From IMG/VR virus record IMGVR_UViG_2718217885_000001: DNA of 34,427 nucleotides; one strand, 5' to 3'. The DNA comes from a virus. Lineage: Duplodnaviria; Heunggongvirae; Uroviricota; Caudoviricetes. Within the stretch, counting starts at the first letter, position 1, and each line of letters begins with the position of its first letter. Positions 13,339 to 34,427 of this stretch are shown here, piece after piece. Both the position numbers and the translations under genes were made by a program. The notes beneath the pieces are model-generated. The model saw only the letters and a program-made list of their open reading frames with translations. It was not told the origin of the DNA and did no database searches.

Positions 13339-13492
13339 TGCTCCCCCTGAGTAATTACAGGAAGATTACCCGCGCACGAAACTGTTCTCCTTAACCCCCT
13401 GTTCTGGCCGTTTTCTTACAACAAAAGCCCTTTGTATCAGCCTGTTACGCTTTGCCATCATGACTGAAGAACCAGTCAGAGGGGCAAAAACT
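13339..13492. promoter_or_regulatory. Divergent late promoter region between P (leftward) and O (rightward)
   Basis: Position equivalent to the P2 P and O late promoters; no exact TGT-N12-ACA Ogr box could be confirmed. Confidence 0.4.
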
Positions 13493-14329: not shown

Positions 14330-14352
14330 TAAGACAAAGGAGCAAATTTTTT

Positions 14353-15405: not shown

Positions 15406-15413
15406 TCAACTCA

Positions 15414-15432
15414 CGGCGGGCATCATGCCCGC
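15414..15432 (+). promoter_or_regulatory. Strong GC hairpin immediately after the major capsid gene (candidate attenuator or mRNA-stabilising element)
   Basis: ggcgggcat-c-atgcccgcc perfect palindrome; no downstream T-tract. Confidence 0.4.
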
Positions 15433-15450
15433 CTGTAACGGAGAGAAAAA

Positions 15451-16251: not shown

Positions 16252-16352
16252 CGACTGACCCCGTCAGCGGGCGGCGTGCGCGGTGTTCCGGTTTGACTCC
16301 GTGACCGTTTACACCGCGCACCCACCGCCCGATTTTTTCAGGAGTGAACCCC

Positions 16353-16847: not shown

Positions 16848-17047
16848 TGAAAGTGAAGGCACTGGAAGGCGACACCGTGGATTCGCTCTGTTTCCGGTAC
16901 TACGGCACGACGCAGGGCGTCACCGAAAAGGTGCTGGATGCCAACCCCGGACTCTGTCAGCAGGTATTTCTGGACGCCGGGCAGGAAGTGGAGATGCCGG
17001 AGCCGGAGAAGAAGAAACGAGAAATGATTCAGTTGTGGGGGGAGTAG
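16847..17047 (+). CDS. X: Tail protein X (P2 gpX-like)
   Basis: ATGA overlap with the L stop; MKVKALEGDTVDSLCFRYYG...NPGL matches the P2 X N-terminus. Confidence 0.8.
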   Translation: MKVKALEGDTVDSLCFRYYGTTQGVTEKVLDANPGLCQQVFLDAGQEVEMPEPEKKKREMIQLWGE

Positions 17048-17049
17048 TA

Positions 17050-17373
17050 GTGAGCACCATTCAAACAGGGATCACAGAGCAGGTTATTGCGTGGCTCTTT
17101 GACCACCTGCCAACGGTGTATGCAGCAGGCGCGGCGGTCAGCATTTCCGCGCTGATGAGTCTTTATGACGGACGAACGCTGGTTCAGACCGTAACGGGAT
17201 CGCTGGCGTGCGGCGTTCTTGCCATGGCCGTGGCCGGGTCGTTGCGCTTCTTCGGAGTTCCTGAAGATGCCGTGACGTTTTTCGGCGCATCTATCGGTTT
17301 TATGGGCGCAGAAAAAGCACGCGACAAGATCATTGCCGCCTTTAACCGCATAACCCAAAAGGGAGATGAATAA
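17050..17373 (+). CDS. Y: Holin (P2 gpY-like), GTG start
   Basis: GTG at 17050 preceded by ggggggag; three hydrophobic segments; directly before the endolysin. Confidence 0.7.
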   Translation: MSTIQTGITEQVIAWLFDHLPTVYAAGAAVSISALMSLYDGRTLVQTVTGSLACGVLAMAVAGSLRFFGVPEDAVTFFGASIGFMGAEKARDKIIAAFNRITQKGDE

Positions 17374-17427
17374 ATCGCAGGCTTAAAGCCGGTAATCACC
17401 ATAAAAATCATTCACAGAGGTGACGAA

Positions 17428-17973
17428 ATGAAATCGAAAGACGAAATTTTTGATGCCGTTCTTGGCAAAGAAGGCGGCTACGTCAATCACCCAGATGACA
17501 GAGGCGGTCCGACAAAATGGGGCATCACTGAAAAGGTGGCACGGGCGCACGGATACCGTGGCGATATGCGTGATTTAACGCGCGGACAGGCACTGGAAAT
17601 CCTTGAAGCTGATTACTGGTACGGACCGCGTTTTGATCAGATAGCGAAGCTGTCCCCGGATATTGCCGCAGAACTGTGTGACTCCGGAGTAAATATGGGA
17701 CCGTCTGTGGCAACCAGAATGCTTCAGCGCTGGCTGAACGCATTCAATCAGGGCGGGAAACTGTATCCCGATATGGACACGGACGGACGCACTGGCCCAC
17801 GCACGATTAACGCATTGCGTGCATATCTGGAAAAACGCGGTCGGGACGGCGAGATGGTGATGTTAACAGCACTGAACTGTACACAGGGTGAACGCTATCT
17901 GGAGCTGGCGGAAAAACGCGAAGCCAACGAATCGTTTGTCTACGGCTGGATAAAGGAACGCGTGGCAGCATGA
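17428..17973 (+). CDS. Endolysin, glycoside hydrolase family 108-type with a C-terminal peptidoglycan-binding domain
   Basis: N-terminal GH108 signature KEGGYVNHPDDRGGPTKWGIT; lysis-cassette context. Confidence 0.75.
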   Translation: MKSKDEIFDAVLGKEGGYVNHPDDRGGPTKWGITEKVARAHGYRGDMRDLTRGQALEILEADYWYGPRFDQIAKLSPDIAAELCDSGVNMGPSVATRMLQRWLNAFNQGGKLYPDMDTDGRTGPRTINALRAYLEKRGRDGEMVMLTALNCTQGERYLELAEKREANESFVYGWIKERVAA

Positions 17974-18377
17974 AGTTATGGACTTCTCTGGGCGTCGCTT
18001 TTCTTCTGATTGCCGCATGGGGAACATCCATGCGTCTGTCGTGGTCGCTGGGCCGGGAGAACGCCAGAAACGAAGCGCAGGCCAGCACCCTGAAAAGTAC
18101 CGTCGACACCCTGAATATCATCAGCACCGGGGTACAGGATATGCAGCAGGTGCTGGCGCAACTCCGCGTGGAAAATCAGCAACGCAATCAGGACGGAGAA
18201 GCCAGACGTGAACAGCTACGCAACGATATTGCAAAAGATGAATGCGCCCACGCTTTGCCTGATGCTCGTTTTACTGACAGGTTGCGCAGGCACGCAGAAC
18301 GCGCCACGGCCAGCGCCGTCAGTCCGGCTTATACCGCAGACGCTGACCATACCGGTAACGCCTCCCCCCTTCCCTGA
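17970..18377 (+). CDS. lysB: i-spanin (Rz/LysB-like inner-membrane spanin)
   Basis: ATGA overlap with the endolysin stop; N-terminal TM segment (LGVAFLLIAAWG) followed by a charged coiled-coil-like region. Confidence 0.7.
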   Translation: MKLWTSLGVAFLLIAAWGTSMRLSWSLGRENARNEAQASTLKSTVDTLNIISTGVQDMQQVLAQLRVENQQRNQDGEARREQLRNDIAKDECAHALPDARFTDRLRRHAERATASAVSPAYTADADHTGNASPLP

Positions 18378-18528
18378 CACTCCCACATGGGGAAATCTCG
18401 GTATATGGGGCGACCGCCTTCTGGATGCACTGGAAACCTGTAACGCAGATAAACGGGCCATTGAATTACTGGAACAGCGCAGGCTGCAACGACTGAACAA
18501 CGAGGACAACAACCATGCTGAAAACTGA
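18208..18528 (+). CDS. lysC: o-spanin (Rz1/LysC-like outer-membrane lipoprotein), start embedded in the +1 frame of the i-spanin
   Basis: Lipobox LLTGC|AG; proline-rich mature region; GTG at 18208 (ggagaa RBS) or ATG at 18238 possible. Confidence 0.65.
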   Translation: MNSYATILQKMNAPTLCLMLVLLTGCAGTQNAPRPAPSVRLIPQTLTIPVTPPPFPDTPTWGNLGIWGDRLLDALETCNADKRAIELLEQRRLQRLNNEDNNHAEN

Positions 18529-18982
18529 TTCCCTGCGTGAAGCCATGACCCGTTCATGCCGATGGTGTCAGGCCAACCCGGAAAAATTCACCATTTTCGT
18601 GGAGAGCGGCAACATTGAAACGACCGGAGAAACGCCCTCGTTTGTTTACCGCTATCAGATGGTGATGTTTGTCATGGATTACGCCGGGGAGCTGGACGAC
18701 CTCACGCTGCCGCTACTGGCGTGGTTATCAGAAAATCAGCCACAGTTGTTGCTCAATCCGGAGCGTAATCAGGACATCAAATTCTCCGCCGTTATCAATG
18801 ACGATGACAGCGCCGATCTCCTGTTTACGCTCCCTCTGCGGGAACGCGTTCGCATCACGCGCAGCAGTCAGGGCACGCCGCAGGCAGAACACCTGCCGGA
18901 GCCAAAACCCCGCCTGCTATCTTCCGAAGGCGACTGGTCGCATGTATTCCAGGATGTGACGTGGGGTGAAAGCGATGGATAA
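18515..18982 (+). CDS. R: Tail completion protein (P2 gpR-like)
   Basis: 155 aa, same length as P2 R; N-terminus MLKTDSLR and LPLLAWLSENQP resemble P2 R. Confidence 0.8.
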   Translation: MLKTDSLREAMTRSCRWCQANPEKFTIFVESGNIETTGETPSFVYRYQMVMFVMDYAGELDDLTLPLLAWLSENQPQLLLNPERNQDIKFSAVINDDDSADLLFTLPLRERVRITRSSQGTPQAEHLPEPKPRLLSSEGDWSHVFQDVTWGESDG

Positions 18983-19610
18983 GGCATTCACCCGCGTGGA
19001 TGAAACCTTTGAGGCCATCCGCGACAGCCTGAATCAGCAGGCCATCAATAACATCGCCAGAAAGCTGGCACAGGATTTACGCCGCGCCCAGCAGGCGCGT
19101 ATCCGGTCACAGAAAGCGCCGGACGGGACCGCGTGGACACCACGCAGACGCCGCGTAACCCGGATACAGGAACGCATTCGCTTTATCTGGAATAACGAAG
19201 CACGCACGCTGAAAAACTGGCATCACGACACGGGGAAATACGGGCGAACCATTACCGGGTGGGATGAGGATAAAAATAATATCCGCACGTTTTACCGGGA
19301 TGACATCGACCGTTTTCTGGAAATACGCACCCGGCGCATCAACCAGGACAGCACAAAGCGCGTCCCCATGTTCGTAAAACTGCGCACCGCCCGCTACCTG
19401 AAAGCCCGTGCAGATGCTTCCGGTGTGACGGTGGGTTACAGCGGCGTGGCCGCACGTATTGCACGCGTTCATCAGTTCGGTGAGCGCGATCAGGTTATGC
19501 CGGGCATTTTCACCGATTACCCGGTACGTGAGCTGCTGGGTATCAGCCAGGCAGATGAGCGCCTGATTTATAACACGGTGCTGGGCCGGATTGCGGAGGC
19601 TGTACGGTGA
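18975..19610 (+). CDS. S: Tail completion / virion morphogenesis protein (P2 gpS-like)
   Basis: ATG at 18975 overlapping the R stop; position between R and V. Confidence 0.7.
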   Translation: MDKAFTRVDETFEAIRDSLNQQAINNIARKLAQDLRRAQQARIRSQKAPDGTAWTPRRRRVTRIQERIRFIWNNEARTLKNWHHDTGKYGRTITGWDEDKNNIRTFYRDDIDRFLEIRTRRINQDSTKRVPMFVKLRTARYLKARADASGVTVGYSGVAARIARVHQFGERDQVMPGIFTDYPVRELLGISQADERLIYNTVLGRIAEAVR

Positions 19611-21435: not shown

Positions 21436-22036
21436 TTCACTGTTACCACCATCAGCCAGCAATTTCATGCGTTGTGCCGAAGCCGTCGGAACACGCATTA
21501 CAGACATTCCGGTAGACCTCAACACGCTGTGGTCGCCGGACACCTGCCCGGCGCATCTGCTGCCTTATCTCGCCTGGGCGTTTTCCGTTGACCGCTGGGA
21601 TCGCAACTGGCCGGAAGAGACAAAGCGACAGGTGATTCGTGATGCATGGCTGATACACCGACACAAAGGGACCATCAGCGCACTGCGAAGAGCCGTGGAG
21701 CCTCTCGGCTACCTGATTGAAGTAAAGGAGTGGTGGCAACTCAACGAGGAGCCAGGAACATTTCGCATTGTTGTCGGAGTACTTGATCAGGGCATCACCG
21801 ATGAAATGTATCAGGAACTTGAGCGCCTTATTGCGGATGCAAAACCAGTAAGTCGCCATCTGACAGGGCTGGCGATCAGTCTGAGTGTGAACGGAAAGAT
21901 TTTCGTTGGTACGGGATGCTATCACGGCGATGCCCTGACGGTTTATCCCTACACCCCGGAGTCCATTATTGTCGAAGGGGATTATTTCCCTGCCCCGGCC
22001 ATTCATTTAATTGATAATCTGAGAGTAAACGCATGA
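21428..22036 (+). CDS. I: Baseplate assembly protein I
   Basis: ATG at 21428 overlapping the J stop; position before the tail fiber gene. Confidence 0.75.
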   Translation: MSNSLLPPSASNFMRCAEAVGTRITDIPVDLNTLWSPDTCPAHLLPYLAWAFSVDRWDRNWPEETKRQVIRDAWLIHRHKGTISALRRAVEPLGYLIEVKEWWQLNEEPGTFRIVVGVLDQGITDEMYQELERLIADAKPVSRHLTGLAISLSVNGKIFVGTGCYHGDALTVYPYTPESIIVEGDYFPAPAIHLIDNLRVNA

Positions 22037-23538
22037 CAGTGAAATACTACGCCATTCTGACTAATCAGGGCGCGGCACGACTGGCTAACGCGACGATGCT
22101 CGGCAGTAAGCTGAATCTGACGCAAATGGCCGTTGGTGATGCAAATGGTGTGTTACCAACACCAGACCCTGCACAAACAAAACTGATTAACCAGAAACGC
22201 ATTGCACCGCTGAATCTTCTGAGTGTTGACCCGAACAACCAGAACCAGATTATTGCGGAGCAAATCATCCCTGAGAACGAGGGCGGATTCTGGATACGTG
22301 AGATTGGGCTTTATGATGATGAAGGCGTACTCATTGCGGTGGCGAACTGCCCGGAAACGTACAAACCGCAGTTGCAGGAAGGCAGTGGTCGTACCCAGAC
22401 TATCCGCATGATTCTGGTTGTCACGAATACCGAAGCTATCACGCTGAAAATCGACCCGTCTGTGGTTCTGGCAACCCGCAAATATGTGGATGACAAAATC
22501 TCAGAGCACGAACAGTCACGACGCCACCCGGACGCCTCGCTGACCGCAAAAGGTTTCACTCAGTTAAGCAGTGCAATTAACAGTGAATCAGAAACACTGG
22601 CCGCAACACCGAAAGCGGTTAAGGCTGCATATGACCTGGCTAGCGGGAAATATACCGCCCAGAATGCCACCACAACACAAAAAGGGATTGTTCAGCTCAG
22701 TAGCGCCACGAACAGCACGTCTGAAACACTGGCAGCGACACCAAAAGCCGTTAAGGTGGTAATGGATGAAACAAACAAGAAAGCCCCATTAAACAGCCCG
22801 GCACTGACCGGAACGCCAACAACGCCAACAGCGCCACAGGGGACTAATAATACTCAGATCGCAAGCACGGCTTATGTTATGGCCGCGATTGCCGCGCTTG
22901 TAGACTCGTCACCTGACGCACTGAACACGCTGAACGAGCTGGCGGCGGCGCTGGGTAACGACCCGAATTTTGCGACAACCATGACTAACGCGCTTGCGGG
23001 TAAGCAACCGAAGGATGCTACCCTGACGGCGCTGGCAGGACTTGCTACAGCAGCAGATAAACTCCCTTATTTTACAGGTGCAGATCGCGCCGCGTTAACC
23101 GCACTGACAAGTGTTGGACGTGCCATTCTTAGTAAGCCCAGCACGCAGGGGGTTCTTGATTACCTTGGTTTGGGAGAAGCGGCAAAACGGGAGGTGGGGA
23201 CAGGGGAAAATCAGATACCGGACATGGCTTCTTTTGCCAGTGGTGATGGATGGATGAAATTACCCAACGGGAAAATCCTGCAATATGGTCGAGGTGCGGT
23301 TACGCCAACATTATCGACGCAAACAATGAGAATTACATTCAGCATCCCTTTTCCTAAAAAAGTGGACTGCGCCATGCTTACCCATTCTGGTGATGGTGGT
23401 GCGCCTTTAGGCGCTGGACGGGGATTCGTGATGACTGCAGAAGGTCCAACACTAACCGGTTTTAATTCCGCTTACAGAACTGCATCAACCAGCTCCACAG
23501 TATCGATGAATTACAGTTGGTGGGCTGTTGGTGAGTAA
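22033..23538 (+). CDS. H: Tail fiber protein (P2 gpH-like): constant N-terminal part plus currently expressed variable C-terminal part
   Basis: ATGA overlap with I; internal near-repeats SETLAATPKAVKAAYDLA / SETLAATPKAVKVVMDE typical of fibers; hix-like crossover site inside the gene at 23153-23178. Confidence 0.85.
   Translation: MTVKYYAILTNQGAARLANATMLGSKLNLTQMAVGDANGVLPTPDPAQTKLINQKRIAPLNLLSVDPNNQNQIIAEQIIPENEGGFWIREIGLYDDEGVLIAVANCPETYKPQLQEGSGRTQTIRMILVVTNTEAITLKIDPSVVLATRKYVDDKISEHEQSRRHPDASLTAKGFTQLSSAINSESETLAATPKAVKAAYDLASGKYTAQNATTTQKGIVQLSSATNSTSETLAATPKAVKVVMDETNKKAPLNSPALTGTPTTPTAPQGTNNTQIASTAYVMAAIAALVDSSPDALNTLNELAAALGNDPNFATTMTNALAGKQPKDATLTALAGLATAADKLPYFTGADRAALTALTSVGRAILSKPSTQGVLDYLGLGEAAKREVGTGENQIPDMASFASGDGWMKLPNGKILQYGRGAVTPTLSTQTMRITFSIPFPKKVDCAMLTHSGDGGAPLGAGRGFVMTAEGPTLTGFNSAYRTASTSSTVSMNYSWWAVGE
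23153..23178. promoter_or_regulatory. Left recombination site of the invertible tail-fiber segment (hix/gix-like, 26 bp)
   Basis: ttcttgattacc|ttggtttgggagaa; inner 14 bp is a perfect inverted repeat of 25044-25057; half-sites fit TTnTCnnAAACC. Confidence 0.75.
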
Positions 23539-23558
23539 TTTTATTCAGGGTGATTTAT

Positions 23559-24002
23559 ATGAACGAATATGTTTATAGCGCAAGGCATAATGCTTTTTTC
23601 CCTGTGGATATGATTGATAAATATAAATCAGAGGGATGGGATTTATCAGATGCAAAGGAGGTGAATCAAAATATTATCAGTGAGTTTATGGCTGAACCGC
23701 CACAAGGAAAAATCCGTATTGCCGGAGATGATGGGCTGCCTGCGTGGGCAGATATTCCTCTACCCACGCATGAAGAGCTTATTGAAATTACTGAATCAGA
23801 AAGACAGCTACTAATTAACCAGGCCAACGAATACATGAACAGTAAGCAATGGCCCGGTAAAGCCGCTATTGGTCGTCTGAAAGGTGAGGAACTGGCGCAA
23901 TATAATTTGTGGCTGGATTATCTGGATGCACTGGAGCTGGTTGATACCTCCAGTGCACCAGATATTGAATGGCCTACGCCTCCAGCAGTACAGGCCAGAT
24001 GA
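23559..24002 (+). CDS. G: Tail fiber assembly chaperone (gpG/Tfa-like), expressed orientation
   Basis: ATG at 23559 with aggg RBS; immediately downstream of H. Confidence 0.75.
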   Translation: MNEYVYSARHNAFFPVDMIDKYKSEGWDLSDAKEVNQNIISEFMAEPPQGKIRIAGDDGLPAWADIPLPTHEELIEITESERQLLINQANEYMNSKQWPGKAAIGRLKGEELAQYNLWLDYLDALELVDTSSAPDIEWPTPPAVQAR

Positions 24003-24576
24003 CCTCCGGCGCGGTGCTGGTATCTGTTGCCGTCACCGCGTCAATGTAATCCAGCACGGCGTTAAGTCGGGTTGTTTCTGCCTGCGTCAACTTCCGTCCG
24101 GCCTGCAATTTCAGTTGAATCAGACTGATGGAGGCCATCGCAGCATCAATCAGTGACTGGCGCTGTGCTTCTGCTGCTTCTACTGCGGCGTTATGCTGTG
24201 CCTCAGTATCTGTCACCCATTTCTCACCATCCCATTTATCGTATAGCGTTAACGGGGCGATAGTGGTTGTATTTTCAGGGTAATTACCCGGCACCGTGAT
24301 TTCTTTTGCTTCTCCTGTTTCGGTGCTATAGATAATTTCACCGCGATGGTCTGGCATATATTCCCATGAGTTTAAATCTACTGAACGGCAGATTGCATAA
24401 CCAGCCTTATATGTGCCAGGAGCATCTAAACAGGAATATGCCGGGATACCGACACCAACAGCAAGATATTCATTTGAAGTGGAAATATATTCCCGTGTTT
24501 CACCATCATAGTTATAGACGGTAATATTCCCCGCCTTCGTGGCAATAAGTTCGCTATTTAATACGGCTTTATCCAT
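23974..24576 (-). CDS. Alternative tail fiber assembly chaperone (Tfa'), silent orientation
   Basis: 200-aa ORF convergent with G and overlapping its 3' end; directly downstream of the alternative fiber C-terminal exon. Confidence 0.7.
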   Translation of the reverse strand: MDKAVLNSELIATKAGNITVYNYDGETREYISTSNEYLAVGVGIPAYSCLDAPGTYKAGYAICRSVDLNSWEYMPDHRGEIIYSTETGEAKEITVPGNYPENTTTIAPLTLYDKWDGEKWVTDTEAQHNAAVEAAEAQRQSLIDAAMASISLIQLKLQAGRKLTQAETTRLNAVLDYIDAVTATDTSTAPEVIWPVLLEA

Positions 24577-25097
24577 TATGCAGCTCTCACGATATAGTTA
24601 AATGCAATATTTCGTGGACGGGTTTCGCTCCCACCTGTGTTACCAATACTCCCTCGTGTATGTAGCGTTGGTGATGGAATCAGAGTTCCTCCGACATCGG
24701 CAGCATCAAGCCCCCGGCCTTGCGTATATGCTCTTCTGAAGATTGTCGCCAGTTCCCATTCCTCTTTTGAATCATACCCATCGTTGGCAACAACAATATG
24801 GCGGTGCTTCTCCAGCATCCCAGTCTGAATGCTCAATAAAGCACGTCCAGCATCAACGCCTCGTCCGTCATCCCAGCCACGAATAAACTCACCACGGAGA
24901 TCAGGTAGTTTCCCTGATGGATATGCTGTAGCAAGATGGGGATATTTAACCTTATCAAAGGCGGCGCCATTGCATTTCAACCAGCCTGTCGGCAAAGTGG
25001 CTGAAGGCCATGGAACAGGCACACCAACGGGTAATGCAGAGCCTTCTCCCAAACCAACGTTTGTGAAAATGCAGAGATAACGGGTAACTGGCATCAT
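24576..25097 (-). CDS. Alternative tail-fiber variable C-terminal exon (Hv'), promoterless in the current orientation
   Basis: Minus-strand ORF whose 5' end carries the right hix-like site; shares the junction peptide GLGE with H. Confidence 0.7.
   Translation of the reverse strand: MMPVTRYLCIFTNVGLGEGSALPVGVPVPWPSATLPTGWLKCNGAAFDKVKYPHLATAYPSGKLPDLRGEFIRGWDDGRGVDAGRALLSIQTGMLEKHRHIVVANDGYDSKEEWELATIFRRAYTQGRGLDAADVGGTLIPSPTLHTRGSIGNTGGSETRPRNIAFNYIVRAA
25044..25069. promoter_or_regulatory. Right recombination site of the invertible segment (hix/gix-like, 26 bp)
   Basis: ttctcccaaaccaa|cgtttgtgaaaa; inverted partner of 23153-23178. Confidence 0.75.
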
Positions 25098-25124
25098 CTC
25101 CGGTTTTTATTCAGGGGGATGCTC

Positions 25125-25715
25125 ATGCTTATTGGTTATGTTCGCGTATCAACAAATGACCAGAACACGGAATTGCAGCGTAACGCGCTGGAGTGCGCAG
25201 GATGTGAACTGATTTTTGAAGATAAAATCAGCGGAACGAAATCAGCCAGACCGGGATTGAAAAAACTGCTCAGAACGCTATCAGAAGGAGATACGCTGGT
25301 TGTCTGGAAGCTGGACAGGCTGGGCAGGAGTATGAAACACCTGATCACGCTTATTGAGGAATTGCGGGAAAAAGGTGTTAATTTCCGTAGCCTGACGGAC
25401 AGCATTGACACATCAACACCCATGGGGCGTTTCTTTTTTCACGTCATGGGAGCTTTAGCAGAAATGGAACGTGAATTAATTGTAGAGCGTACACTGGCCG
25501 GGCTGGCAGCAGCACGAGCACAGGGACGCATTGGCGGACGTCGCCCGAAGTTGACAAAAGAACAACATGAGCAAATAGAAAGGCTGATTAAAAACGGCCA
25601 TGACAGGAAACAACTGGCGATCATTTACGACATCGGTATATCGACGATTTATCGTTATCACCCTGTAGGCGATATACAGGCTGAAGAAACAACCGGGCAG
25701 ACTCAGGGAAAATAA
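25125..25715 (+). CDS. Serine DNA invertase of the Gin/Pin/Cin/Hin family
   Basis: N-terminus MLIGYVRVSTNDQNTELQRNAL with catalytic Ser, plus VVWKLDRLGRSMKHL and GRFFFHVMGALAEMERELI, nearly matching recalled Mu Gin; abuts the invertible segment. Confidence 0.9.
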   Translation: MLIGYVRVSTNDQNTELQRNALECAGCELIFEDKISGTKSARPGLKKLLRTLSEGDTLVVWKLDRLGRSMKHLITLIEELREKGVNFRSLTDSIDTSTPMGRFFFHVMGALAEMERELIVERTLAGLAAARAQGRIGGRRPKLTKEQHEQIERLIKNGHDRKQLAIIYDIGISTIYRYHPVGDIQAEETTGQTQGK

Positions 25716-25716
25716 A

Positions 25717-25745
25717 AAACCGCTAATCTGACCATTAGCGGTTTT
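25717..25745. terminator. Bidirectional intrinsic terminator between the convergent invertase and gpU genes
   Basis: aaaaccgctaat-ctgacc-attagcggtttt: 12-bp stem flanked by an A-run and a T-run. Confidence 0.7.
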
Positions 25746-25752
25746 GCGTTAA

Positions 25753-26247
25753 TCAAAACAGCCCTTTAACGGAGCTGGCCGCGCTGTTAAGGGATGATGT
25801 GACCTTATCTTTGAAGCCGGACAGCATATCACTGAACGATGAGGATTGCAGGCGCTCCCGCAAATCCTCATCACAGCGTTCAAGAGTCAGTGAAAATTCT
25901 ATCTTTTTCGCCTTACCGTAGCGATCAAACTCGGAACGGGTCGTATTCGTTTCAGTCAGCACATACATGCCGTAAATCTGCCCGACACCATCAATCAGAG
26001 GCCAGGGGCGTCCTGTATATGCCTGCGTGGTCAGCAACGAAAGCGACACTTCGCCACCTGTAATTTCAGGATAAAGCACGCCGGAAAGCACAATGCGATC
26101 ATCACCTGCACCGATATACTGCCAGCTTGCTGAACGGTTAACGCGTTCATTTTTCACATGCCGCCAGCTTTTGTTTTGCTGTAACTGCTGATGCGGCAAT
26201 GTGCGCAGCTCAAAAACAAACATGCCGTAGATCATCATCATGACCAT
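25753..26247 (-). CDS. U: Tail protein U
   Basis: 164 aa; recalled similarity to P2 U (MMMxxGxFVF, RSWRH, GGxxSLSxL, WPLIDGxGxIYGMYV). Confidence 0.8.
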   Translation of the reverse strand: MVMMMIYGMFVFELRTLPHQQLQQNKSWRHVKNERVNRSASWQYIGAGDDRIVLSGVLYPEITGGEVSLSLLTTQAYTGRPWPLIDGVGQIYGMYVLTETNTTRSEFDRYGKAKKIEFSLTLERCDEDLRERLQSSSFSDMLSGFKDKVTSSLNSAASSVKGLF

Positions 26248-26253
26248 GACTCC

Positions 26254-29070
26254 TCAATCTTTATCGTAAAAACTGCCACGTCCGGCACGGGCGCGCCGTT
26301 CCATCTCTGCCCTGACCATTTCACCGACCAGTTTCGCCAGTTCGCGGGGATTCTGCGTAACAACGTTATGCAGATGAACATGAATTTCACCGCAAAATCC
26401 GGAGACAGCAGGCTCCCGGTTACGGGAAGTTGCAGGAACTGATGCCACTGGCGATCGTATAGCCTCCGCCACCGGGCGGGAGCTGGCCGCAACAACAGGG
26501 ACCAGCGCCGGAGGCAGCGGAGCCGGGACCACGGGTGTGATGTTGATTGCGGAAGCAGGCTTACTGACCTGTGCAATCTTCCGCTCCTGCCACTCCCCAC
26601 GAACAGCAAGTGCGCGGGGCAGGTTCTTAAAGACAATATCGCCGGGGCCAATGCGTTTTTTCGTCTCATCAACCAGCTTACCTGTGTTATCAGCAATTTT
26701 GCTGAGTCTGCGCAGCGTACCGGTATTGCTGTCTGTGAGCGGTTTATTGTCTTTGGGGTTATCACCTCCGGTGCCATTGCCATTTTCCACAGGCTTCGGC
26801 GGATTGATTTTCGCCAGGTCCCCCTGAAGCAAGGCAACCTTGTCCTGAAGAATGGCCGCACGCTGTGCGTCTTCGATTTTCTTGCGCGCCCTTTCCGCTT
26901 CATCCGGAAGAACACCGAGTTTTTCAAGTATCCACGCCAGCGTATCCAGCAACATTTTTGCAGGCGTCAGAACAAGCTGTAACGCGCCACCAAGAACGTT
27001 ACCGAATATCTCGCCAGCACTGGTACATTTATCCAGCGTTTCCTTGCTGGACTCCATCGGTGACAGCAGCGATTTAAACCAGTTAAACACCTGACTGATC
27101 CCGCTTCCGATTGCGTCAAAAACAGGGCCAAACCGTTCAAAGGTTTCACGCAACGGGTTCAGCCTTTCCATAATCCCGCTGAACACCCCGGCAAAAAATG
27201 CCCTGATGGGATCCCAGTATTTCCAGATAAGAACGGCAGCTCCGGCGAGCGCAGCCACAATAAGACCAACCGGACTGAACAGCGCCCCGATAGCGCCTCC
27301 CAGCAAAGAAACGGAACCCGTCAGCATTCCCCACAGCGCAGGCAACACCCTGACGACATTCATTGACCGGGTAAGAATGTCAAAACCAAGACGCAAGGTG
27401 GCCAGCTTTCCGTAAAGCACCCCAATAACCAGCGACAACGAGCCAATCGTTGCAGTCATTGCCAGCAACGCACCGCCTGCTATCAGTAGCTGGCGTGTCA
27501 GTACCGGATGGGCCTGCGCCAGCGAGGTGATTTTTTCAAGCACACGCGTGAGCCACTGCGTGACAGAACGCAGCGGACCGTCAACCAGATCACTGATGCG
27601 AATACGAAGACCTTCCCATGCGCTGTCGAGATTTTTCAGGTCCCCATCAAGATTATCGGCCATTACTTTTGCAACGCGATCGGCCTCTCCCCTTGCCCCC
27701 TGCAATTCTCTGGTCAGTTTTTGCAGCTCTCCTGAACCAGCCGCCGCAACAAGCGTCTGCAAACCAACGAACGCCTCTTCTCCGGCGATGTCCTTGAAGA
27801 AGGAGACCTGGTCCACCTGTCCGTATTTTTGTGTCGCCTTATAGAGATCAAGCAGCACATCCTCCATCGGGCGCATTTTGCCTCTGGCGTCAGCAACTGA
27901 CACCCCCAGCTCTTTCAGTGCATCAGCCGCAGCTTTTGGCGGTGATGCAAGGCGGGACAGACTTGCGCGCATGGCCGTGCCAGCATCGCTTCCGCGAAGA
28001 CCATTATTGGCAAGCATCCCGGCCATGGCCGCCGCTTCTTCAAGACTGATACCAAGTTTTGCGGCAACCGGACCGGTATACTTCATGGTTTCGCCCAGCG
28101 CGCGTAAATCAGTATTGGTCCGGGTGAATGCTGCTGTCAGCGTATCGCCCACCCGGTCCATTTGATCGGCTGTCAGGTTGAACTGTGTGAGGATATTGGA
28201 GCCTATATCAGCCGTCTCGCCGAGTTCGACGCCACCTGCCAGCGCCATATTAAGAACACCGGGCAATGCGGCCTGAATGGCCTGCGGAGTAAAACCAGCC
28301 ATTGCCAGAAAGCTCTGCCCACTGGCGGCATCACTCGCAGTAAACTGTGTTTCAGAGCCAAGTTTTAACGCCTGCTCACGCAGCGCCTTAAACTGCGGGC
28401 TGTTTTTGTCGATTCGCGTCAGTGCCTGAACGCGGGACATCTCTTTGCCGAACCCGATCGCAGGCTGCAAAAAACGCCCGGCAGCATAGCCGCCCGCCGC
28501 TGCCGCACCAATTGCCAGCGCACCACCTGTTTTCAGTTTTCCCGCGGTTTCCTGCGCGCGCGAATACCGCTCACGCGCCCGCGTTACACGCGCAAGCGCC
28601 TGCCGTTCGCGTTCAAGCTGGTTGTTGTACTGTTCGGTGCGTCTGATGGCCTGCTGGATGGTGTTATCGCTGCCTGTCAGGGAAATGCCGTGGCGTTTCA
28701 GCTCTCCGCCAAGCTCCCGCATTTTCTGAATTTCCCGTGTGCGCGATTCATTCAGGCGTTCAAGCCGGGTGCTTAACTGCTGCATCAGCTTTTGTTGTTT
28801 TTCGCTGAGCACTGTACCCGTGCGTTGTAACTGATTAAGGGCGTTAAGCTGGCGTCGTGCTTTCACGATACCCGCATCCGCTTTACTGACAGCGTCGCGG
28901 GCGCGCTCAAATGATCGCGCCTGACGCTCGAGATTTTTGATCGCCCCCTGCGTTCGCTGGATGGAGTCACCAAACTGCCCCATCAGGCGGCGGGCGTTTT
29001 CGGCAGGCCGGGTCAGCCTGTCAACGGCGCTGAAAGCGACCCGGATATCAAGAGTCTTCATTGTCTGCAT
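26254..29070 (-). CDS. T: Tail tape measure protein (P2 gpT-like)
   Basis: About 940 aa, coiled-coil rich N-terminus and Gly/Ala-rich hydrophobic middle; start uncertain (ATG 29070 or 29061, or GTG 29097); overlaps the end of E'. Confidence 0.85.
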   Translation of the reverse strand: MQTMKTLDIRVAFSAVDRLTRPAENARRLMGQFGDSIQRTQGAIKNLERQARSFERARDAVSKADAGIVKARRQLNALNQLQRTGTVLSEKQQKLMQQLSTRLERLNESRTREIQKMRELGGELKRHGISLTGSDNTIQQAIRRTEQYNNQLERERQALARVTRARERYSRAQETAGKLKTGGALAIGAAAAGGYAAGRFLQPAIGFGKEMSRVQALTRIDKNSPQFKALREQALKLGSETQFTASDAASGQSFLAMAGFTPQAIQAALPGVLNMALAGGVELGETADIGSNILTQFNLTADQMDRVGDTLTAAFTRTNTDLRALGETMKYTGPVAAKLGISLEEAAAMAGMLANNGLRGSDAGTAMRASLSRLASPPKAAADALKELGVSVADARGKMRPMEDVLLDLYKATQKYGQVDQVSFFKDIAGEEAFVGLQTLVAAAGSGELQKLTRELQGARGEADRVAKVMADNLDGDLKNLDSAWEGLRIRISDLVDGPLRSVTQWLTRVLEKITSLAQAHPVLTRQLLIAGGALLAMTATIGSLSLVIGVLYGKLATLRLGFDILTRSMNVVRVLPALWGMLTGSVSLLGGAIGALFSPVGLIVAALAGAAVLIWKYWDPIRAFFAGVFSGIMERLNPLRETFERFGPVFDAIGSGISQVFNWFKSLLSPMESSKETLDKCTSAGEIFGNVLGGALQLVLTPAKMLLDTLAWILEKLGVLPDEAERARKKIEDAQRAAILQDKVALLQGDLAKINPPKPVENGNGTGGDNPKDNKPLTDSNTGTLRRLSKIADNTGKLVDETKKRIGPGDIVFKNLPRALAVRGEWQERKIAQVSKPASAINITPVVPAPLPPALVPVVAASSRPVAEAIRSPVASVPATSRNREPAVSGFCGEIHVHLHNVVTQNPRELAKLVGEMVRAEMERRARAGRGSFYDKD

Positions 29071-29577
29071 TCCCGCTGCGAAGTGCCGCCCGCTCACGCC
29101 AGCTAACCACTTCGCCGGGCGTCATCATGAAGATTTCGGCGGGCGACCAGTTAAAAATGGCGGCAATATCCGCCACAAAGTCTTCTATGTGCTCAAAGCA
29201 CACAACCGTGATCAGGCTTCCGTCGCCTGTTCGTTCTTCCCGCCAGAGTCCGCACCGCTCAAAAAATTTACGGCAACCACACATAACTGAATAAAGTCAC
29301 GGGATGCCATTTTTTTGATCGTCACTTCATCCAGTCGCGGTGATGTCACGCGTGACAGCAGCGTAAACATGGATTCCGCTTTCAGATTCAGCACATCAGA
29401 CAGCGACAAATCTCGCAGAGATCCAGCCTGCTCAATAGCCCCGGTGATCTCCACATACGTGATTTTTTCGCCGCCTCGCTCAATTGGTTGGGTAAGTTTT
29501 ACGCCACGCTCACTGGTTTCTTTCACAGTGTCAGTAACTACCGTGTTTTCGGTATCGATGTTTTTCGTCTCTTTCAT
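29048..29577 (-). CDS. Tail assembly chaperone E+E' fusion made by programmed -1 ribosomal frameshift
   Basis: -1 frame stays open from the slippery site down to 29048, overlapping the T start, as in P2 E/E'. Confidence 0.6.
29212..29577 (-). CDS. E: Tail assembly chaperone E (in-frame product)
   Basis: 121-aa ORF between the tube and tape measure genes; slippery heptamer near its 3' end. Confidence 0.75.
   Translation of the reverse strand: MKETKNIDTENTVVTDTVKETSERGVKLTQPIERGGEKITYVEITGAIEQAGSLRDLSLSDVLNLKAESMFTLLSRVTSPRLDEVTIKKMASRDFIQLCVVAVNFLSGADSGGKNEQATEA
29260..29266 (-). other. Slippery heptamer T TTT TTG for the -1 frameshift in E
   Basis: Minus-strand gta aat ttt ttg agc (E frame) versus cgt aaa ttt ttt gag (E' frame); same heptamer as the P2 E/E' site. 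Confidence 0.6.
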
Positions 29578-29631
29578 CAGGAAACTCCTTTCAGTCAGAG
29601 GCGACGCACTGCGCCGCCTGCATATTACTTA

Positions 29632-30144
29632 TCAGCCAAGCCCAAGCGCGGAACGGATGCGATCGGGCACAATGTCCTTGCCGTCCTTCCGGTAAATGAA
29701 GTTCAGCAGGTCAATCTCCCACAACGGGCGATCGTTAACACTCAGCTTGTAGTAGGTGTTTTTAATGGCGTAAGTGTGTGATGTGGCTTCGCCCTGTTTG
29801 GCTTCCCCCATATCAATTTCCGTCACACGTCCGCGCATTTCGACTTCATACAGGTCGCTTTCTGCATCGGTGTAGTATTCACCCGCAAAACGCAGCAGCG
29901 TGCCGTCAATCGTGCCGCCATACTTAAGGAACAGCTCACGAACTGCGCCCCCCATGACAAAGCTCGCATCAAGCGCGGAGTCGTCCAGACCGAGATCAAT
30001 ACTTACCGCACCCATCATGCCGCCCCCCCGGTAGCTGTCGGTTTTGCGCGTCAGCTTAGGCAGAGTGACGGACGTCACCTTACCCACTTCGTTTTCACCA
30101 TCCACAAACAGCGTAAAAAAGCGAAGATGTTTTGGTACAGCCAT
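29632..30144 (-). CDS. FII: Tail tube protein (P2 gpFII-like)
   Basis: 170 aa; immediately downstream of the sheath gene. Confidence 0.85.
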   Translation of the reverse strand: MAVPKHLRFFTLFVDGENEVGKVTSVTLPKLTRKTDSYRGGGMMGAVSIDLGLDDSALDASFVMGGAVRELFLKYGGTIDGTLLRFAGEYYTDAESDLYEVEMRGRVTEIDMGEAKQGEATSHTYAIKNTYYKLSVNDRPLWEIDLLNFIYRKDGKDIVPDRIRSALGLG

Positions 30145-31328
30145 CAGGCACCTCCCAGCACCGCAAATGCGGGACCAAAGAATTCATCAGTAAACGACTG
30201 GTAAAGCTCCATGTCTTCCAGCGGGGGAACAGGCGTATATTTGTAGCGAATACGCACGCGCCCCTGACGTAAATCCGTGGTGCCGTTATCCACCACGTCA
30301 TACCAGCACGACGCCCCAATCAGTTTCCCGGCAGTAACCAGTGAATCCAGTTTTGCCCTGATGGCACTGATAACATCTTTCACGTTCGCAGGCGTCAGTG
30401 GACTGTCGATGGTTTCAAACTGCGCTTCCGCAATTGAATCAGCCAGCACCTGTGCGGTTCGGGTATACACCTCAAAGATGTAGGCGTTCGTTTCCGGTGT
30501 GCGGTTGCCCCAGAAGCGGAACCCGTTGCGACGAATAATGGTCGTGATTTCTTTGTTGTTGAGGCTGTTGGCATCACTGTCTTCGGCCTGCAACGACCAG
30601 AACACATGCCTGGACATCCCCAGCACATTTTTAACCGGAACGTTGGACAGCGATTTGTGCCAGCCCTGCTCATGGTCAATGTACGCACGAAGGCCGCACG
30701 CATAGGCAGGCGCGGGGAACGTTTCGTTTTTGCCACTTTTCGGGTTGTAGGCGATGAAGTCCGGCCATAAGAGCATCACCTCACGTTCGTTGAATTTCTG
30801 GCGGTAGGTAATCGCCTCAGCCATCGTGTTACAGCCGTGACATGAGGCATACACAAACGCGCGCAGTTTACCCGCAATCACGCACAGGGATTTTGTTACC
30901 GCCTCCGTGTCCAGCTCCGGCGCGGCCAGAATACGCGGACGGTATCCGATGCTTTCATCCTGCTCTGCAACAAGCAGCGCATACATCCCCGTATAGCTGC
31001 CGTCATCCTCAGAACCACCGATAACCAGTTGATCCTGCGTCTTTCCGTCTTCTTCTTTGTGTTCAGCCACGCGAACGACGATCACCTTTGTGCTCACCTG
31101 GTCTGCGATGGCCTTAAGCGCACGATAAAGCGTCCCCGTTGTCCCGCATTTTCCCAGCACGTCATTGACGCGGGTCAGCAGTGTGGGCTTGTTCAGCGGG
31201 AACAGCTTCGCGTCCGCATCATCCGCCGTTGCCACGATACCGATAACGCTGGAATCAACATCGTTAATCGCTGTTACCAGGTCGGTATTTTCCGTAACAC
31301 GGGCACCATGAAAACGAGTTTCACTCAT
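30144..31328 (-). CDS. FI: Contractile tail sheath protein (P2 gpFI-like)
   Basis: 394 aa; aagggg RBS; first gene of the minus-strand tail operon. Confidence 0.85.
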   Translation of the reverse strand: MSETRFHGARVTENTDLVTAINDVDSSVIGIVATADDADAKLFPLNKPTLLTRVNDVLGKCGTTGTLYRALKAIADQVSTKVIVVRVAEHKEEDGKTQDQLVIGGSEDDGSYTGMYALLVAEQDESIGYRPRILAAPELDTEAVTKSLCVIAGKLRAFVYASCHGCNTMAEAITYRQKFNEREVMLLWPDFIAYNPKSGKNETFPAPAYACGLRAYIDHEQGWHKSLSNVPVKNVLGMSRHVFWSLQAEDSDANSLNNKEITTIIRRNGFRFWGNRTPETNAYIFEVYTRTAQVLADSIAEAQFETIDSPLTPANVKDVISAIRAKLDSLVTAGKLIGASCWYDVVDNGTTDLRQGRVRIRYKYTPVPPLEDMELYQSFTDEFFGPAFAVLGGA

Positions 31329-31485
31329 AGCTTCAGCCCCTTGTATCCGTTAAATGATTCGGCAACAATCATCACCCACCACGCGCGTAATCTCACCCCT
31401 GCGCTATTCTCCCGCCACGGCGACAACAAAAAGCAGTAACCCACTCCGCACACACATGCGACCATGCCGCACAGGGAGGGAACAG
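31329..31485. promoter_or_regulatory. Divergent promoter region between the sheath operon (leftward) and D (rightward)
   Basis: 157-bp noncoding spacer between divergent starts; has no counterpart in canonical P2, where FI...U-D are co-linear. Confidence 0.4.
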
Positions 31486-32595
31486 ATGACCGACACCACC
31501 ATGCAATTGCTCAGTCAGGGCACAGACCCCGTGAAAATGCCGGATTTTGATATTCTCGCGGAGGGTAAAACGCTGTCCGGCGTGGCAGAGCGCCTGATGA
31601 GCCTGTCGCTGACCGACAACCGGGGATTTGAGGCGGACCAGCTCACCATCACGCTGGATGATGCCGATGGCCAGTTGCAGCTACCGCCACGGGGCGCGCG
31701 TCTGACGGTTCTCATTGGCTGGAAAGGGGAACCGCTGACAGAAAAAGGCACTTACATTGTTGATGAAATCGCTCACGAAGGACCGCCGGACAGGCTGACT
31801 GTTTCAGCCAGAAGCGCAGATTTTCGGGATGAATTTAACGTTAAACGTGAGGTGTCCTGGCATGATGTGACCGTTGAGCGTGTGGTATCCGCCATCGCTC
31901 ATCGGTACGGTCTGAAACCGCAAATCAGCGAAATGCTGATGGATATCGAAATCGACCACGCCGACCAGACCGAAGAAAGCGACATGTCCTTCCTTACGCG
32001 CATGGCGGAAATGCTGGGCGCAATCACCACGGTAAAAAGCGGTAATCTGTTATTCATCATGCCCGGAGGTGGCGTGAACGCGCAGGGCCAGCCGTTGCCA
32101 TCGTTTGCCATCACACGCAGCAGCGGCGATCGCCATCAGTTCCGCATTGCTGACCGCGAGGCGTATACGGGTGTACGCGCCTACTGGCTTGATCTTAATT
32201 ACGGGAAAAAGAAAAAAGTCAGCGTGAAACGCCGCAAACCGCCAAAACCCAAAAAGGAGAAAAGCAGCAGCCGCGAAGGTGACTATATGGAAGGTGCGGA
32301 AGGCAACGTATTTGTGTTACGCAAGACTTATCAGAACGAGCAGGCAGCAAGACGCGCAGCGGCGGCAAAGTGGCAGCAGCTACAACGCGGAGCCGCATCA
32401 TTTTCCATCACGCTGGCACGTGGACGCGCAGAACTCTACCCCGAAATGCATGGCACGGTAACAGGATTTAAAAGCGAGATTGATAATCAGGACTGGATTA
32501 TTGCAAAAGCCGAGCACACCATTGATAACAGCGGCTTTACCACGCAGCTTGAGCTTGAGGCAAAAATCCCGGAATGGATAGCGGAAACAGACTGA
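31486..32595 (+). CDS. D: Tail protein D (late-gene product, P2 gpD-like)
   Basis: ATG at 31486 with gggaggg RBS; about 369 aa; followed by the ogr-like gene. Confidence 0.75.
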   Translation: MTDTTMQLLSQGTDPVKMPDFDILAEGKTLSGVAERLMSLSLTDNRGFEADQLTITLDDADGQLQLPPRGARLTVLIGWKGEPLTEKGTYIVDEIAHEGPPDRLTVSARSADFRDEFNVKREVSWHDVTVERVVSAIAHRYGLKPQISEMLMDIEIDHADQTEESDMSFLTRMAEMLGAITTVKSGNLLFIMPGGGVNAQGQPLPSFAITRSSGDRHQFRIADREAYTGVRAYWLDLNYGKKKKVSVKRRKPPKPKKEKSSSREGDYMEGAEGNVFVLRKTYQNEQAARRAAAAKWQQLQRGAASFSITLARGRAELYPEMHGTVTGFKSEIDNQDWIIAKAEHTIDNSGFTTQLELEAKIPEWIAETD

Positions 32596-32637
32596 GCAAC
32601 TTAGAATAGCGGCAGCACCACGTTAAGGGAGGTCGCT

Positions 32638-32898
32638 ATGTTCCGTTGTCCGCTTTGTGGCGCATCTGCCCGTATCCGCACCAGTCGTCCGGAAAATGAT
32701 TCAAACACCGTGCGGCAAAAGTATTACCAGTGTAACAACCTGGAATGCGGCGTATGCTTCTCAACACTGGAAGCCTTCCATAAATTCACATCAAAACACG
32801 CCTCCGGCGTTCACTCTTCAGAAGGTATCCCGTGGCATGAGCTGCCAGCTTCACACAGGGGAAACAATCAGATGAGTTTGCCTTTATCTCAGAATTAA
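32638..32898 (+). CDS. ogr: Ogr/Delta-type zinc-finger late transcription activator
   Basis: N-terminus MFRCPLCGASARIRTSR...YYQCNNLECGVCF, C-x2-C...C-x4-C like P2 Ogr (MFHCPLC...YHQCQNVNC); gggagg RBS. Confidence 0.8.
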   Translation: MFRCPLCGASARIRTSRPENDSNTVRQKYYQCNNLECGVCFSTLEAFHKFTSKHASGVHSSEGIPWHELPASHRGNNQMSLPLSQN

Positions 32899-33315
32899 CA
32901 GGCAGAATTGCCGGAGTAACAAAAAAGCGATAGATTACGCGCGGGTGCCTTTCGGCTGATGGTCGGAGGGAATACCCGAAGGCCAGATGTGGAAAGGCCC
33001 GGAAAACATTTTTGTTTAACCGAGGCCCTAACACTTCTTACCTTCGCAAGTAGAAGGTTAGCGCCTCTCCTCTCAGGAGACAAGCGTTATGACGCAAATT
33101 CCGTTAAAAACCCTGTTACTTTGCATAACTGCGGTAGCGATAATCTGGATCCTCCACACATCACCGTGCGAGTTACGATTCAGGTTTGCTGGCACGGAAA
33201 TTGCGGCATTCTTACTATGTAATAAGTAAGATAACCGCGACGGGGGAGTAATCCCCCGTCAATCGGTTGCTAAGGTTGGTCGAAACGGCACCCTATCTCA
33301 CAGACATGAACAACA

Positions 33316-33478: not shown

Positions 33479-33676
33479 ATGACGCAAAATGTACGATGCA
33501 AAAATTGCAACAAACTACTTGCCCGCGCCTCATTTCACTACATTGAAATAAAATGTCCGCGCTGCAAAACACTTAACCAGATAACGAGAGCCATCGAGCA
33601 CCCCACACACATGAGGAGTTATGACCGTGGGGATCGCAATCCAGCACCAACCAGCACATACACCGGAACACACTAA
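33479..33676 (+). CDS. com: Com-like zinc-finger translational activator (Mu Com family)
   Basis: MTQNVRCKNCNKLLARASFHYIEIKCPRCKTLNQ...EHPT resembles recalled Mu Com (RCKNCNKLL...HIEIRCPRCK...EHPT); ATG at 33479 with aagagg RBS; 3' end overlaps the next gene. Confidence 0.75.
   Translation: MTQNVRCKNCNKLLARASFHYIEIKCPRCKTLNQITRAIEHPTHMRSYDRGDRNPAPTSTYTGTH
33601..33632 (+). promoter_or_regulatory. Hairpin enclosing the methyltransferase RBS and start codon (candidate Com-responsive translational operator)
   Basis: ccccac (33601-33606) pairs with gtgggg (33627-33632); loop holds GAGGAG and the ATG at 33621. Confidence 0.45.
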
Positions 33677-34427
33677 GGTTTATCAGACTGACAATGCCAC
33701 GCTCTGTCGTGGGAATGCGCTGGAAATATTGCCGCTGATTGAGCCAGAAAGCATTGATGCCTTAATCACTGACCCGCCTTACAGTTCGGGCGCGACACAC
33801 AAGGCCGGACGCACCAACCAGGGCAGCCATGCAAAATATCTGAACGGTGAGAACCTTCACCGCTTTGATGGGTTCGCGGGTGAAAACATGGACGCCCGTT
33901 CGTGGGCTTACTGGACACAATTATGGATGGCACAGGCACACCGCGCAGTCAGGCCGGGCGGTTATGCCCTGGTATTTACTGACTGGCGACAACTACCAGC
34001 TTTAACCGATGCGTTTCAGGCCAGTGGCTTTACATGGCGCGGCATCATTGCGTGGAACAAGGGGAGGGGGTCACGAACACCACATACCGGGTATTTCCGG
34101 CATCAGTGCGAATACATCGTCTGGGGCAGCAAAGGCCATTTAGATAAATCGCCTTCGGGACCGTTCGACGGCTGCATGACGTTCCCGGTTATTTCGTCAA
34201 AGAAAATGCACCCGACCGGAAAACCAGAAGAACTAATGGCGGAACTGGTCAGGACTGTGAATAGTGGCGGAACAGTCCTTGATCCTTTTATGGGGTCAGG
34301 GACAACGGGTGTGGCTGCACTGAAAGCAGGGCGAAAATTTATTGGTATAGAAACCAGCGATCATTATTTTGAGGTAGCAGCGCAGCGGCTTCGGGGGACT
34401 ATTACCACAACCATTTCGGCTACATAA
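33621..34427 (+). CDS. DNA methyltransferase, beta-class (DPPY before FxGSGTT), probably N6-adenine
   Basis: Motif IV ITDPPYS upstream of motif I DPFMGSGTTGVAA; start overlaps the com-like gene; GTG at 33627 is an alternative start. Confidence 0.8.
   Translation: MTVGIAIQHQPAHTPEHTKVYQTDNATLCRGNALEILPLIEPESIDALITDPPYSSGATHKAGRTNQGSHAKYLNGENLHRFDGFAGENMDARSWAYWTQLWMAQAHRAVRPGGYALVFTDWRQLPALTDAFQASGFTWRGIIAWNKGRGSRTPHTGYFRHQCEYIVWGSKGHLDKSPSGPFDGCMTFPVISSKKMHPTGKPEELMAELVRTVNSGGTVLDPFMGSGTTGVAALKAGRKFIGIETSDHYFEVAAQRLRGTITTTISAT

Follow-up and report, generated by a model that had tools for sequence, protein, structure and literature searches.

A fixed inversion of the FI-to-U tail block in P88-like prophages, with a predicted bidirectional late promoter

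The divergent tail gene order in which the FI-to-U block lies opposite to D and ogr is the normal, fixed order of a large and common P88-like group of phages, with relatives in ~28 Enterobacterales genera. Taken jointly, a fixed inversion of this block and a dyad shared by the late promoters on either side of the FI-D spacer are, in our judgment, very probably the best explanation of the data. We propose that a module comprising PF, FI, FII, E/E', T and U underwent a single, ancient inversion between the end of the tail-fiber region and D. The inverted order would have been fixed ever since, and would now be standard in a large Enterobacterales clade of Peduoviridae. We rate the arrangement itself as already known because it is plain in many annotated public records. 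Our literature searches found no explicit description of this inversion, and the P88 paper is silent on orientation. The only new element is the predicted bidirectional late promoter, and it is a modest one.

The DNA that we analyzed (hereafter the window, 34.4 kb at full length) is a P2-family prophage. From the left, it carries an integrase (1-1023, minus strand), replication genes, Q/P, O-N-M-L, lysis genes and R-S-V-W-J-I-H-G. These are followed by an invertible tail-fiber segment, a serine invertase, the U-FI block, D and ogr; to the right of ogr lie a hok-type gene and then a com-like gene with a DNA methyltransferase. The E. coli MFDS1022581 chromosome carries region 21900-33000 at 100% identity. 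Phage P88, the type member of the genus Xuanwuvirus, matches window bases 1-25000 with 95.0% identity over 77%, and region 21900-33000 with 93.1% identity over 76%. The ICTV genus criterion is at least ~70% nucleotide similarity across the genome; the similarity to P88, estimated from these two partial comparisons, is ~71 to 73%, just above the genus threshold. The window is thus a P88-like (genus Xuanwuvirus) P2-family prophage.

Gene identities were assigned with Pfam and PHROG profile searches, which bore out the strand assignments of the preliminary description: U, T, E/E', FII and FI (25753-31328) are on the minus strand, and D and ogr are on the plus strand. The P2-family contractile tail set is complete, with Pfam or PHROG matches for FI, FII, E/E', T, U and D. 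Starting from the invertase side, the minus-strand genes encode the gpU tail protein (25753-26247; Phage_P2_GpU, 5.5e-39, and phrog_76), the gpT tape measure (26254-29097, with a PGAP start at 29061; PhageMin_Tail, 1.6e-56, and phrog_28), the E' frame of the GpE family (29048-29284; Pfam Phage_P2_GpE, 2.6e-12), the gpE tail assembly chaperone (29212-29577; phrog_103, 2.3e-35), the gpFII tail tube (29632-30144; Pfam Phage_tube, 7.5e-47), and the gpFI tail sheath (30144-31328; phrog_23, 2.9e-125, with Phage_sheath domains). The E' frame overlaps the 3' end of E, and a slippery TTTTTTG lies at 29260-29266 on the minus strand; E' is predicted to be reached from E by a programmed -1 frameshift. On the plus strand are gpD, the baseplate hub or late control D protein (31486-32595; Pfam Phage_GPD), and, 42 nt downstream, an ogr/delta-type zinc-finger late activator (32638-32898; Pfam Ogr_Delta, 5e-14). 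The order D then ogr is found in nearly all relatives. The cysteine pattern of Ogr in the window is CX2C-X24-CX4C, compared with a spacing of X22 in P2 Ogr (PMC3931495).

FI and D were described as diverging across a 157-bp spacer (31329-31485), and this holds. The start of D at 31486 is fixed by a ribosome binding site and ATG that are conserved among relatives, within a long enclosing open reading frame that opens at 31354. At the other end of the block, U converges with the serine DNA invertase (25119-25715, plus strand; Resolvase and HTH_7 domains), and the bidirectional terminator noted between them is also present. The 37-bp gap contains a hairpin with a 12-bp stem (25716-25745; terminator scan and folding), whose folding energies are -15.2 and -15.6 kcal/mol for the two strands (z of about -5), with none of 200 shuffles as stable. 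Its T-run is stronger on the U side. This shared hairpin would stop both convergent transcripts, that of FI-U and that of the invertase and H-G.

One feature of P2 is missing from the window, namely a co-directional operon from FI to D, since FI-U run leftward and D rightward, and its absence defines the whole clade. The co-directional order FI-FII-E-T-U-D, which had been cited as the established one, is indeed found, with ogr following D, in fiAA91-ss (Peduovirus) and in a Klebsiella Kapieceevirus, and is documented for P2 (PMC3931495). It is an order feature of P2 and not of the family Peduoviridae; the ICTV places divergent-order phages in that family.

The preliminary description implied that the arrangement is unusual. 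Its relatives show the reverse, a common and fixed order. In the RefSeq annotation of P88 the order is the same, with the invertase on the plus strand, U-T-E'-E-FII-FI on the minus strand and D on the plus strand. We compared 82 close loci (80 IMG/VR contigs, P88 and the source genome), and FI is on the minus strand with D on the plus strand in 82/82. Furthermore, every close locus that reaches U has U, T, E, FII and FI on the minus strand and D on the plus strand, with the exception of one rearranged contig (L037). The divergent FI-D junction extends well beyond this group. It also occurs in the Klebsiella phages 3LV2017 and Kp4860-2 (Reginaelenavirus) and ST16-OXA48phi5.4 and Kp4846-1 (Reipivirus), as well as in Enterobacter phage phiT5282H (Novemvirus) and Serratia phage KSP20. 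The FI and D of these distant phages are ~68 to 78% identical to those of the window, and four ICTV genera have the divergent order.

A wider scan used one genome per GTDB species, with a D-protein alignment as the query, and the 80 best loci were classified by tblastn. Among these 80, the inverted order (U, T, E, FII and FI minus; D and ogr plus) is present in all 62 loci whose D shares at least 61% identity with that of the window, and all 18 loci with a D at most 53% identical have the P2 order, with FI, FII, E, T, U and D on the plus strand. The 62 inverted species-representative loci span ~28 Enterobacterales genera, including Salmonella, Citrobacter, Enterobacter, Klebsiella, Kosakonia, Serratia, Erwinia, Pantoea, Pectobacterium, Brenneria, Edwardsiella, Hafnia, Yersinia, Xenorhabdus, Photorhabdus, Providencia and Morganella. 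Thus, of the readings offered earlier, an ancient inversion that was fixed in the lineage and needed a late promoter of its own for D is the one that the data support, both by the invariant order across the clade and by a conserved, promoter-like spacer facing D.

How D and ogr are expressed is the question raised by this order. Upstream of D there is no plus-strand gene or promoter other than those antisense to the FI-U block. With nothing co-directional upstream, the promoter must therefore sit in the spacer. A sigma-70 consensus scan of the FI-D spacer returned nothing above background. P2 late operons are driven by Ogr at TGT-N12-ACA dyads (PMC3931495), and Ogr-box-like dyads had been suggested as a target for searches of the spacer. 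In its strict form this motif is absent from the late spacers: TGT-N12-ACA has five matches in the window against 7.9 expected, none of them in late spacers. A relaxed form is present and conserved, and emerged on aligning relatives and allowing T[GC]T, as T[G/C]T-N12-ACA(ACAAAAAG). In the window, it is a candidate Ogr-type dyad, TCT-N12-ACA, at 31408-31425 (center 31416.5), which with its conserved extension ACAACAAAAAG covers 31408-31433. One half of the window dyad reads TCT where the consensus is TGT, and relatives have TGT-N12-ACA at this place. T.T-N12-ACA occurs at the dyad position in 62 of 68 inverted-clade spacers, and the other six are one half-site base off.

For a gap-free stack anchored on the dyad, we used 61 distinct spacers; these sequences are related, and the counts out of 61 are not counts of independent events. 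Nearly all of the spacer has diverged, apart from two mirror-image hexamers at invariant spacing. The FI side has three conserved positions (A at -40, T at -39 and T at -36, each in 59/61 spacers), and its hexamers read GATGAT, GAATAT or GATTAT on the FI strand. The D side has A at +36 (58/61) and T at +40 (56/61), and its hexamers read GACCAT, AATCAT or AACTAT. In the window, the -10-like hexamer for FI (PF) is GATGAT at 31368-31373 on the minus strand, with a predicted start at ~31361, and that for D (the proposed PD) is GACCAT at 31460-31465 on the plus strand, with a predicted start at ~31472. Each of the two hexamers ends 40 nt away from the edge of the dyad. With starts 7 nt past the hexamer, the dyad center would be at -55.5 for both promoters, and the two predicted starts are ~111 bp apart. 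This position was calibrated internally on ten canonical-order loci; in work by Christie and Calendar, the Ogr dyads of P2 late promoters are reportedly centered near -55. In the ten canonical-order phages, the FI side has A at +36 and T at +40 in 10/10, whereas the mirror positions carry them in 3 to 4 of 10, which is the chance level.

We propose, as the most parsimonious reading, that the inversion carried PF along with its palindromic Ogr-binding dyad, leaving the far side of the dyad facing D. D and ogr would then form a two-gene unit of their own, transcribed from a second promoter, PD, on the same dyad, and a single Ogr site ~55.5 bp upstream of both starts would activate FI-to-U leftward and D-ogr rightward. 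On comparative sequence evidence, we slightly favor the view that one Ogr dyad serves both divergent late promoters. We give about even chances to the further suggestion that the inversion was tolerated because the dyad is palindromic, and that a mirror -10 then evolved at the same distance. With ogr in the rightward unit, the shared-dyad reading would entail a positive feedback loop through Ogr, which we place at the same even chances.

The P-O spacer may offer a parallel within the same genome. It is 154 bp in the window once the start of O is corrected to the ATG at 13493, and it contains one TCT-N12-ACAACAAAAG dyad at 13403-13429, the same motif as in the FI-D spacer. Its -10-like hexamers are TAATCT toward P and CATCAT toward O, and this design is conserved in phiT5282H. 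With the same pattern, no perfect dyad was found in the P-O spacer of the P2-type phage fiAA91-ss. In Smp131, the same dyad coordinates have been assigned to both PP' and PO' (PMC3931495).

Alternatively, the inversion may be fixed but D-ogr transcribed from a sigma-70 or other-factor promoter that is independent of the FI dyad and of Ogr. Several features point this way. A -35-like T on the D side is conserved at +12 (59/61) and +13 (51/61), and distant members have a TTGTCT-like -35 element 17 bp from the hexamer. Between the -35-like T and the hexamer lies a conserved alternating CG tract (CA/CG in the window, at ~31445-31459), which occurs on the D side in 56/61 spacers compared with 9/61 on the FI side. 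In addition, a sigma-70-like site lies inside the 3' end of D (32458-32487), and Ogr can act only once ogr has been expressed, which calls for some expression independent of Ogr. Against this, the distance from the D hexamer to the dyad equals that on the FI side and that of canonical PF, without indels over ~28 genera. Such constancy would be difficult to account for if the dyad had no bearing on D. In P2, moreover, D is a late structural gene. We therefore consider an Ogr-independent origin of D-ogr transcription unlikely. Nevertheless, the CG/CA tract hints at further control on D-ogr, and, given this tract and the -35-like T, PD might be Ogr-independent or answer to another regulator.

The polarity of the change can be read from phages outside the clade. 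With a U-D chimera as the tblastn query, 388 of 521 phage records have U next to D on the same strand, and the hosts include Pseudomonas (phiCTX), Ralstonia, Burkholderia, Acidovorax, Mannheimia and Xanthomonas. Since co-directional U-D is found far outside Enterobacterales, the P2 order is ancestral and the divergent order was derived in one Enterobacterales clade. We also clustered D, which lies outside the block, and FI, which lies inside it, from identity matrices. In this distance-based, unrooted hierarchical clustering, the first split in both proteins matches arrangement exactly under three linkage methods, and the nearest neighbor shares the arrangement in 84/84 cases for D and 80/80 for FI. 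A single origin of the inversion is well supported by these trees, but not proven, as they are distance-based and unrooted. The converse scheme, in which Peduoviridae started out with the divergent order and the P2 order is derived, or in which the inversion arose several times, draws on the lack of a root and on identity ranges that nearly touch (for D, a within-clade minimum of 0.58 and a between-clade maximum of 0.59). Given that the divergent order was seen only in one Enterobacterales cluster and that all nearest neighbors agree, we regard this scheme as very unlikely.

Far less probable still is that the 5.7-kb block is switchable by the adjacent invertase or another recombinase, with the window caught in one of two states. 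This reading would account for a serine invertase that directly adjoins the block, and two relatives (L037 and CP052639.1) are in fact rearranged. However, the only invertase crossover sites in the window are at 23154-23180 and 25044-25069, flanking the H/G tail-fiber segment. At the boundaries of the block (25753-31485), pattern and inverted-repeat searches found no hix-like site with up to three mismatches, in agreement with the preliminary description, and only chance-level repeats. Of 5426 complete E. coli genomes, 1357 (approximately a quarter) carry the observed FI-D junction (31000-31800) intact. By contrast, a synthetic flipped junction, in which the 3' end of U is joined to the 5' end of D, is contiguous in none of the 1415 E. 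coli genomes that carry these sequences. The order is also unchanged in many relatives that have no invertase: ~29 of the 82 close loci lack one between H and U, and no invertase homolog was detected in the Klebsiella loci L083 and L084. As for the two rearranged relatives, their rearrangements are destructive because the breaks fall within T or FI. We considered a pseudo-hix site in T (CAAACCAACG, 27760-27769) as the break site in L037, and rejected this, as the exact junction maps to ~27732-27737; its breakpoint is not at a hix-like sequence. The invertase serves only the H/G tail-fiber segment and has no part in the inversion of the block, and the earlier suggestion that the block undergoes large-scale inversion does not stand.

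The least probable reading of all is that the orientation is an assembly artefact of a single genome, as had also been suggested; it has only a priori possibility in its favor, and the same order is present in a complete chromosome, 80 IMG/VR contigs, 62 species-representative genomes and the phage isolates P88, PhiSM, 500465-2, 3LV2017 and phiT5282H. Hundreds of separate assemblies share it, as do viable phage isolates. Both P88 and PhiSM form plaques and are viable, infectious temperate phages (PMC5285337, PMC6456863). We exclude both reversible flipping and misassembly because the boundaries have no sites, invertase-free relatives have the same order, complete and purified genomes agree, and the phages are viable.

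The divergent order is aberrant only against the textbook map of P2, and is standard in one of the commonest families of E. coli prophages. It should not be taken as a sign of rearrangement, switching or misassembly. It is also a clean synapomorphy that could aid the classification of Peduoviridae. A shared Ogr dyad for FI and D-ogr is a testable regulatory prediction. If true, it would illustrate, in nature, how an inversion can split an operon with control retained when the activator site is symmetric.

The closest known systems are P88 and its relatives in Xuanwuvirus: PhiSM (Citrobacter), 500465-2, 520873 and PhiR44_2. Like the window, P88 has the order H-G-(G'-H')-invertase, then U-T-E-FII-FI on the minus strand and D-ogr on the plus strand, as well as a 157-bp FI-D spacer with few substitutions. 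The two differ only in the variable tail-fiber tips and accessory genes. The annotation of P88 itself places a 132-bp hypothetical open reading frame in the FI-D spacer.

The late operon of P2 and other members of Peduovirus shares its genes, its E/E' slippery site and its PF geometry with the window. The -10 hexamer of canonical PF also ends 40 nt from the dyad edge, and the distance from the dyad center to the ATG of FI is 75 to 89 nt in the inverted clade compared with 77 to 83 nt in canonical loci. The difference is that PF-FI..U is inverted here and D is uncoupled from U, whereas U and D overlap or abut in the canonical order. D and FI are only ~47 to 52% identical to their canonical-order counterparts.

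As in the Gin/Hin/Cin/Pin (Din-family) systems, a serine invertase in the window adjoins DNA that is inverted. The element that properly belongs to this type is the invertible H/G tail-fiber segment just upstream, with its 26-bp crossover sites. The FI-U block does not belong to the Gin/Hin type of invertible segment, as it has neither flanking crossover sites nor a second state among the 1415 genomes. A nearer likeness to the FI-D spacer is found in the PP/PO region of P2-family phages, where late promoters also lie back to back in a spacer of ~155 bp. The FI-D spacer would be a second such pair, present only in the inverted clade.

The D side of the FI|D spacer carries an alternating pyrimidine-purine tract (window 31445-31459), which in related loci occupies positions +15 to +34 relative to the dyad. 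Of the 61 distinct spacers, 56 had such a tract on the D side, compared with nine that had one on the FI side; the G+C content of the segment was 77%. The tract reads CGCGCGCG in most relatives and CCGCACACACATG in the window. On the D side only, this conserved tract sits between the -35-like and -10-like elements. The layout of FI|D, with a single dyad and two hexamers, is also present in the P|O spacer (window 13339-13495). There, translation of O probably begins at the ATG at 13493 (MANEKK..., with GAGGGG just before it) rather than at the first ATG of the open reading frame (ORF), at 13460.

Both H (501 amino acids) and D (369 amino acids) are intact ORFs in the sequence (window 22033-23538 and 31486-32595), unlike in the PGAP annotation of the source genome, the E. 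coli MFDS1022581 chromosome (NZ_CP169399.1, 3134-4639 and 12843-13696). In that RefSeq record, H is called a truncated pseudogene with a separate 'gp53-like' ORF, and D is given a start at window 31795, preceded by a small pseudogene. The prophage block is contained in a 226-kb contig assigned to a Firmicute, 'Vagococcus sp. WN89Y' (NZ_JBQPOM010000071.1), whose D protein is 98% identical to that of E. coli. This is likely to be contamination or a mislabelled assembly.

Two relatives were further rearranged. In L037, a close relative (IMGVR_UViG_2654587728_000014, 1-7612; approximately window 24861-27770), the T gene is broken at window ~27732-27737, and the inverted piece comprises the invertase, U and the C-terminal half of T. 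Identity to the window is just 87% over this piece, compared with 96% elsewhere in the locus. The two pieces are separated by a stretch containing a second invertase and three hix-like sites, and both junctions share a 6-nt overlap. No hix-like sequence was found at the breakpoint itself. The other relative, L089, is a clade member on a linear 32-kb K. pneumoniae 'plasmid unnamed' (CP052639.1, locus 11670-19471), and shows a secondary inversion: the segment with the N-terminal part of FI, D, ogr and a hypothetical gene is reversed with respect to that with the C-terminal part of FI, FII, E, T and U. Because this inversion splits FI, the gene is present as two pseudogene fragments; the element may be defective, or the record misassembled.

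PhiSM virions have been described as siphoviruses with long non-contractile tails (PMC6456863). However, the deposit 'Citrobacter phage Shae_phiSM' (OR565851.1) is P88-like, and its match to the window spans the whole tail region, including the U-to-FI block with its sheath and tube genes. The annotation of OR565851.1 under this match lists tape measure, tail proteins, gene D, ogr and invertase. The records of phages 520873 and 503458 are likewise P88-like, apart from IS100 (IS21 family) insertions annotated inside or beside the tape-measure gene.

In relatives, the interval from G/invertase to the U 3' end (for example, L090 4195-6098) holds variable cargo encoding PIN-domain, TIR-domain, DUF3800 and DUF262 proteins. 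The position corresponds to the Z/fun accessory hotspot of P2; in the window, no cargo was present there. In the window, only 11 nt separate the end of S (19610) from the start of V (19622), compared with 66 nt in fiAA91-ss, a Peduovirus with P2 gene order. A P2-type PV promoter spacer cannot fit, and the late operon structure of the clade may differ from that of P2 at S-V too. The right end of the prophage (window 33480-34427) carries a gene for a Com-family zinc-finger protein and, after it, one for an N6/N4 DNA methyltransferase. The TGT-N12-ACA match at 33554-33571 is simply coding sequence for the Com CPRC zinc-finger motif. The layout of this right end is similar to that of Mu com/mom, except that a methyltransferase is present here.
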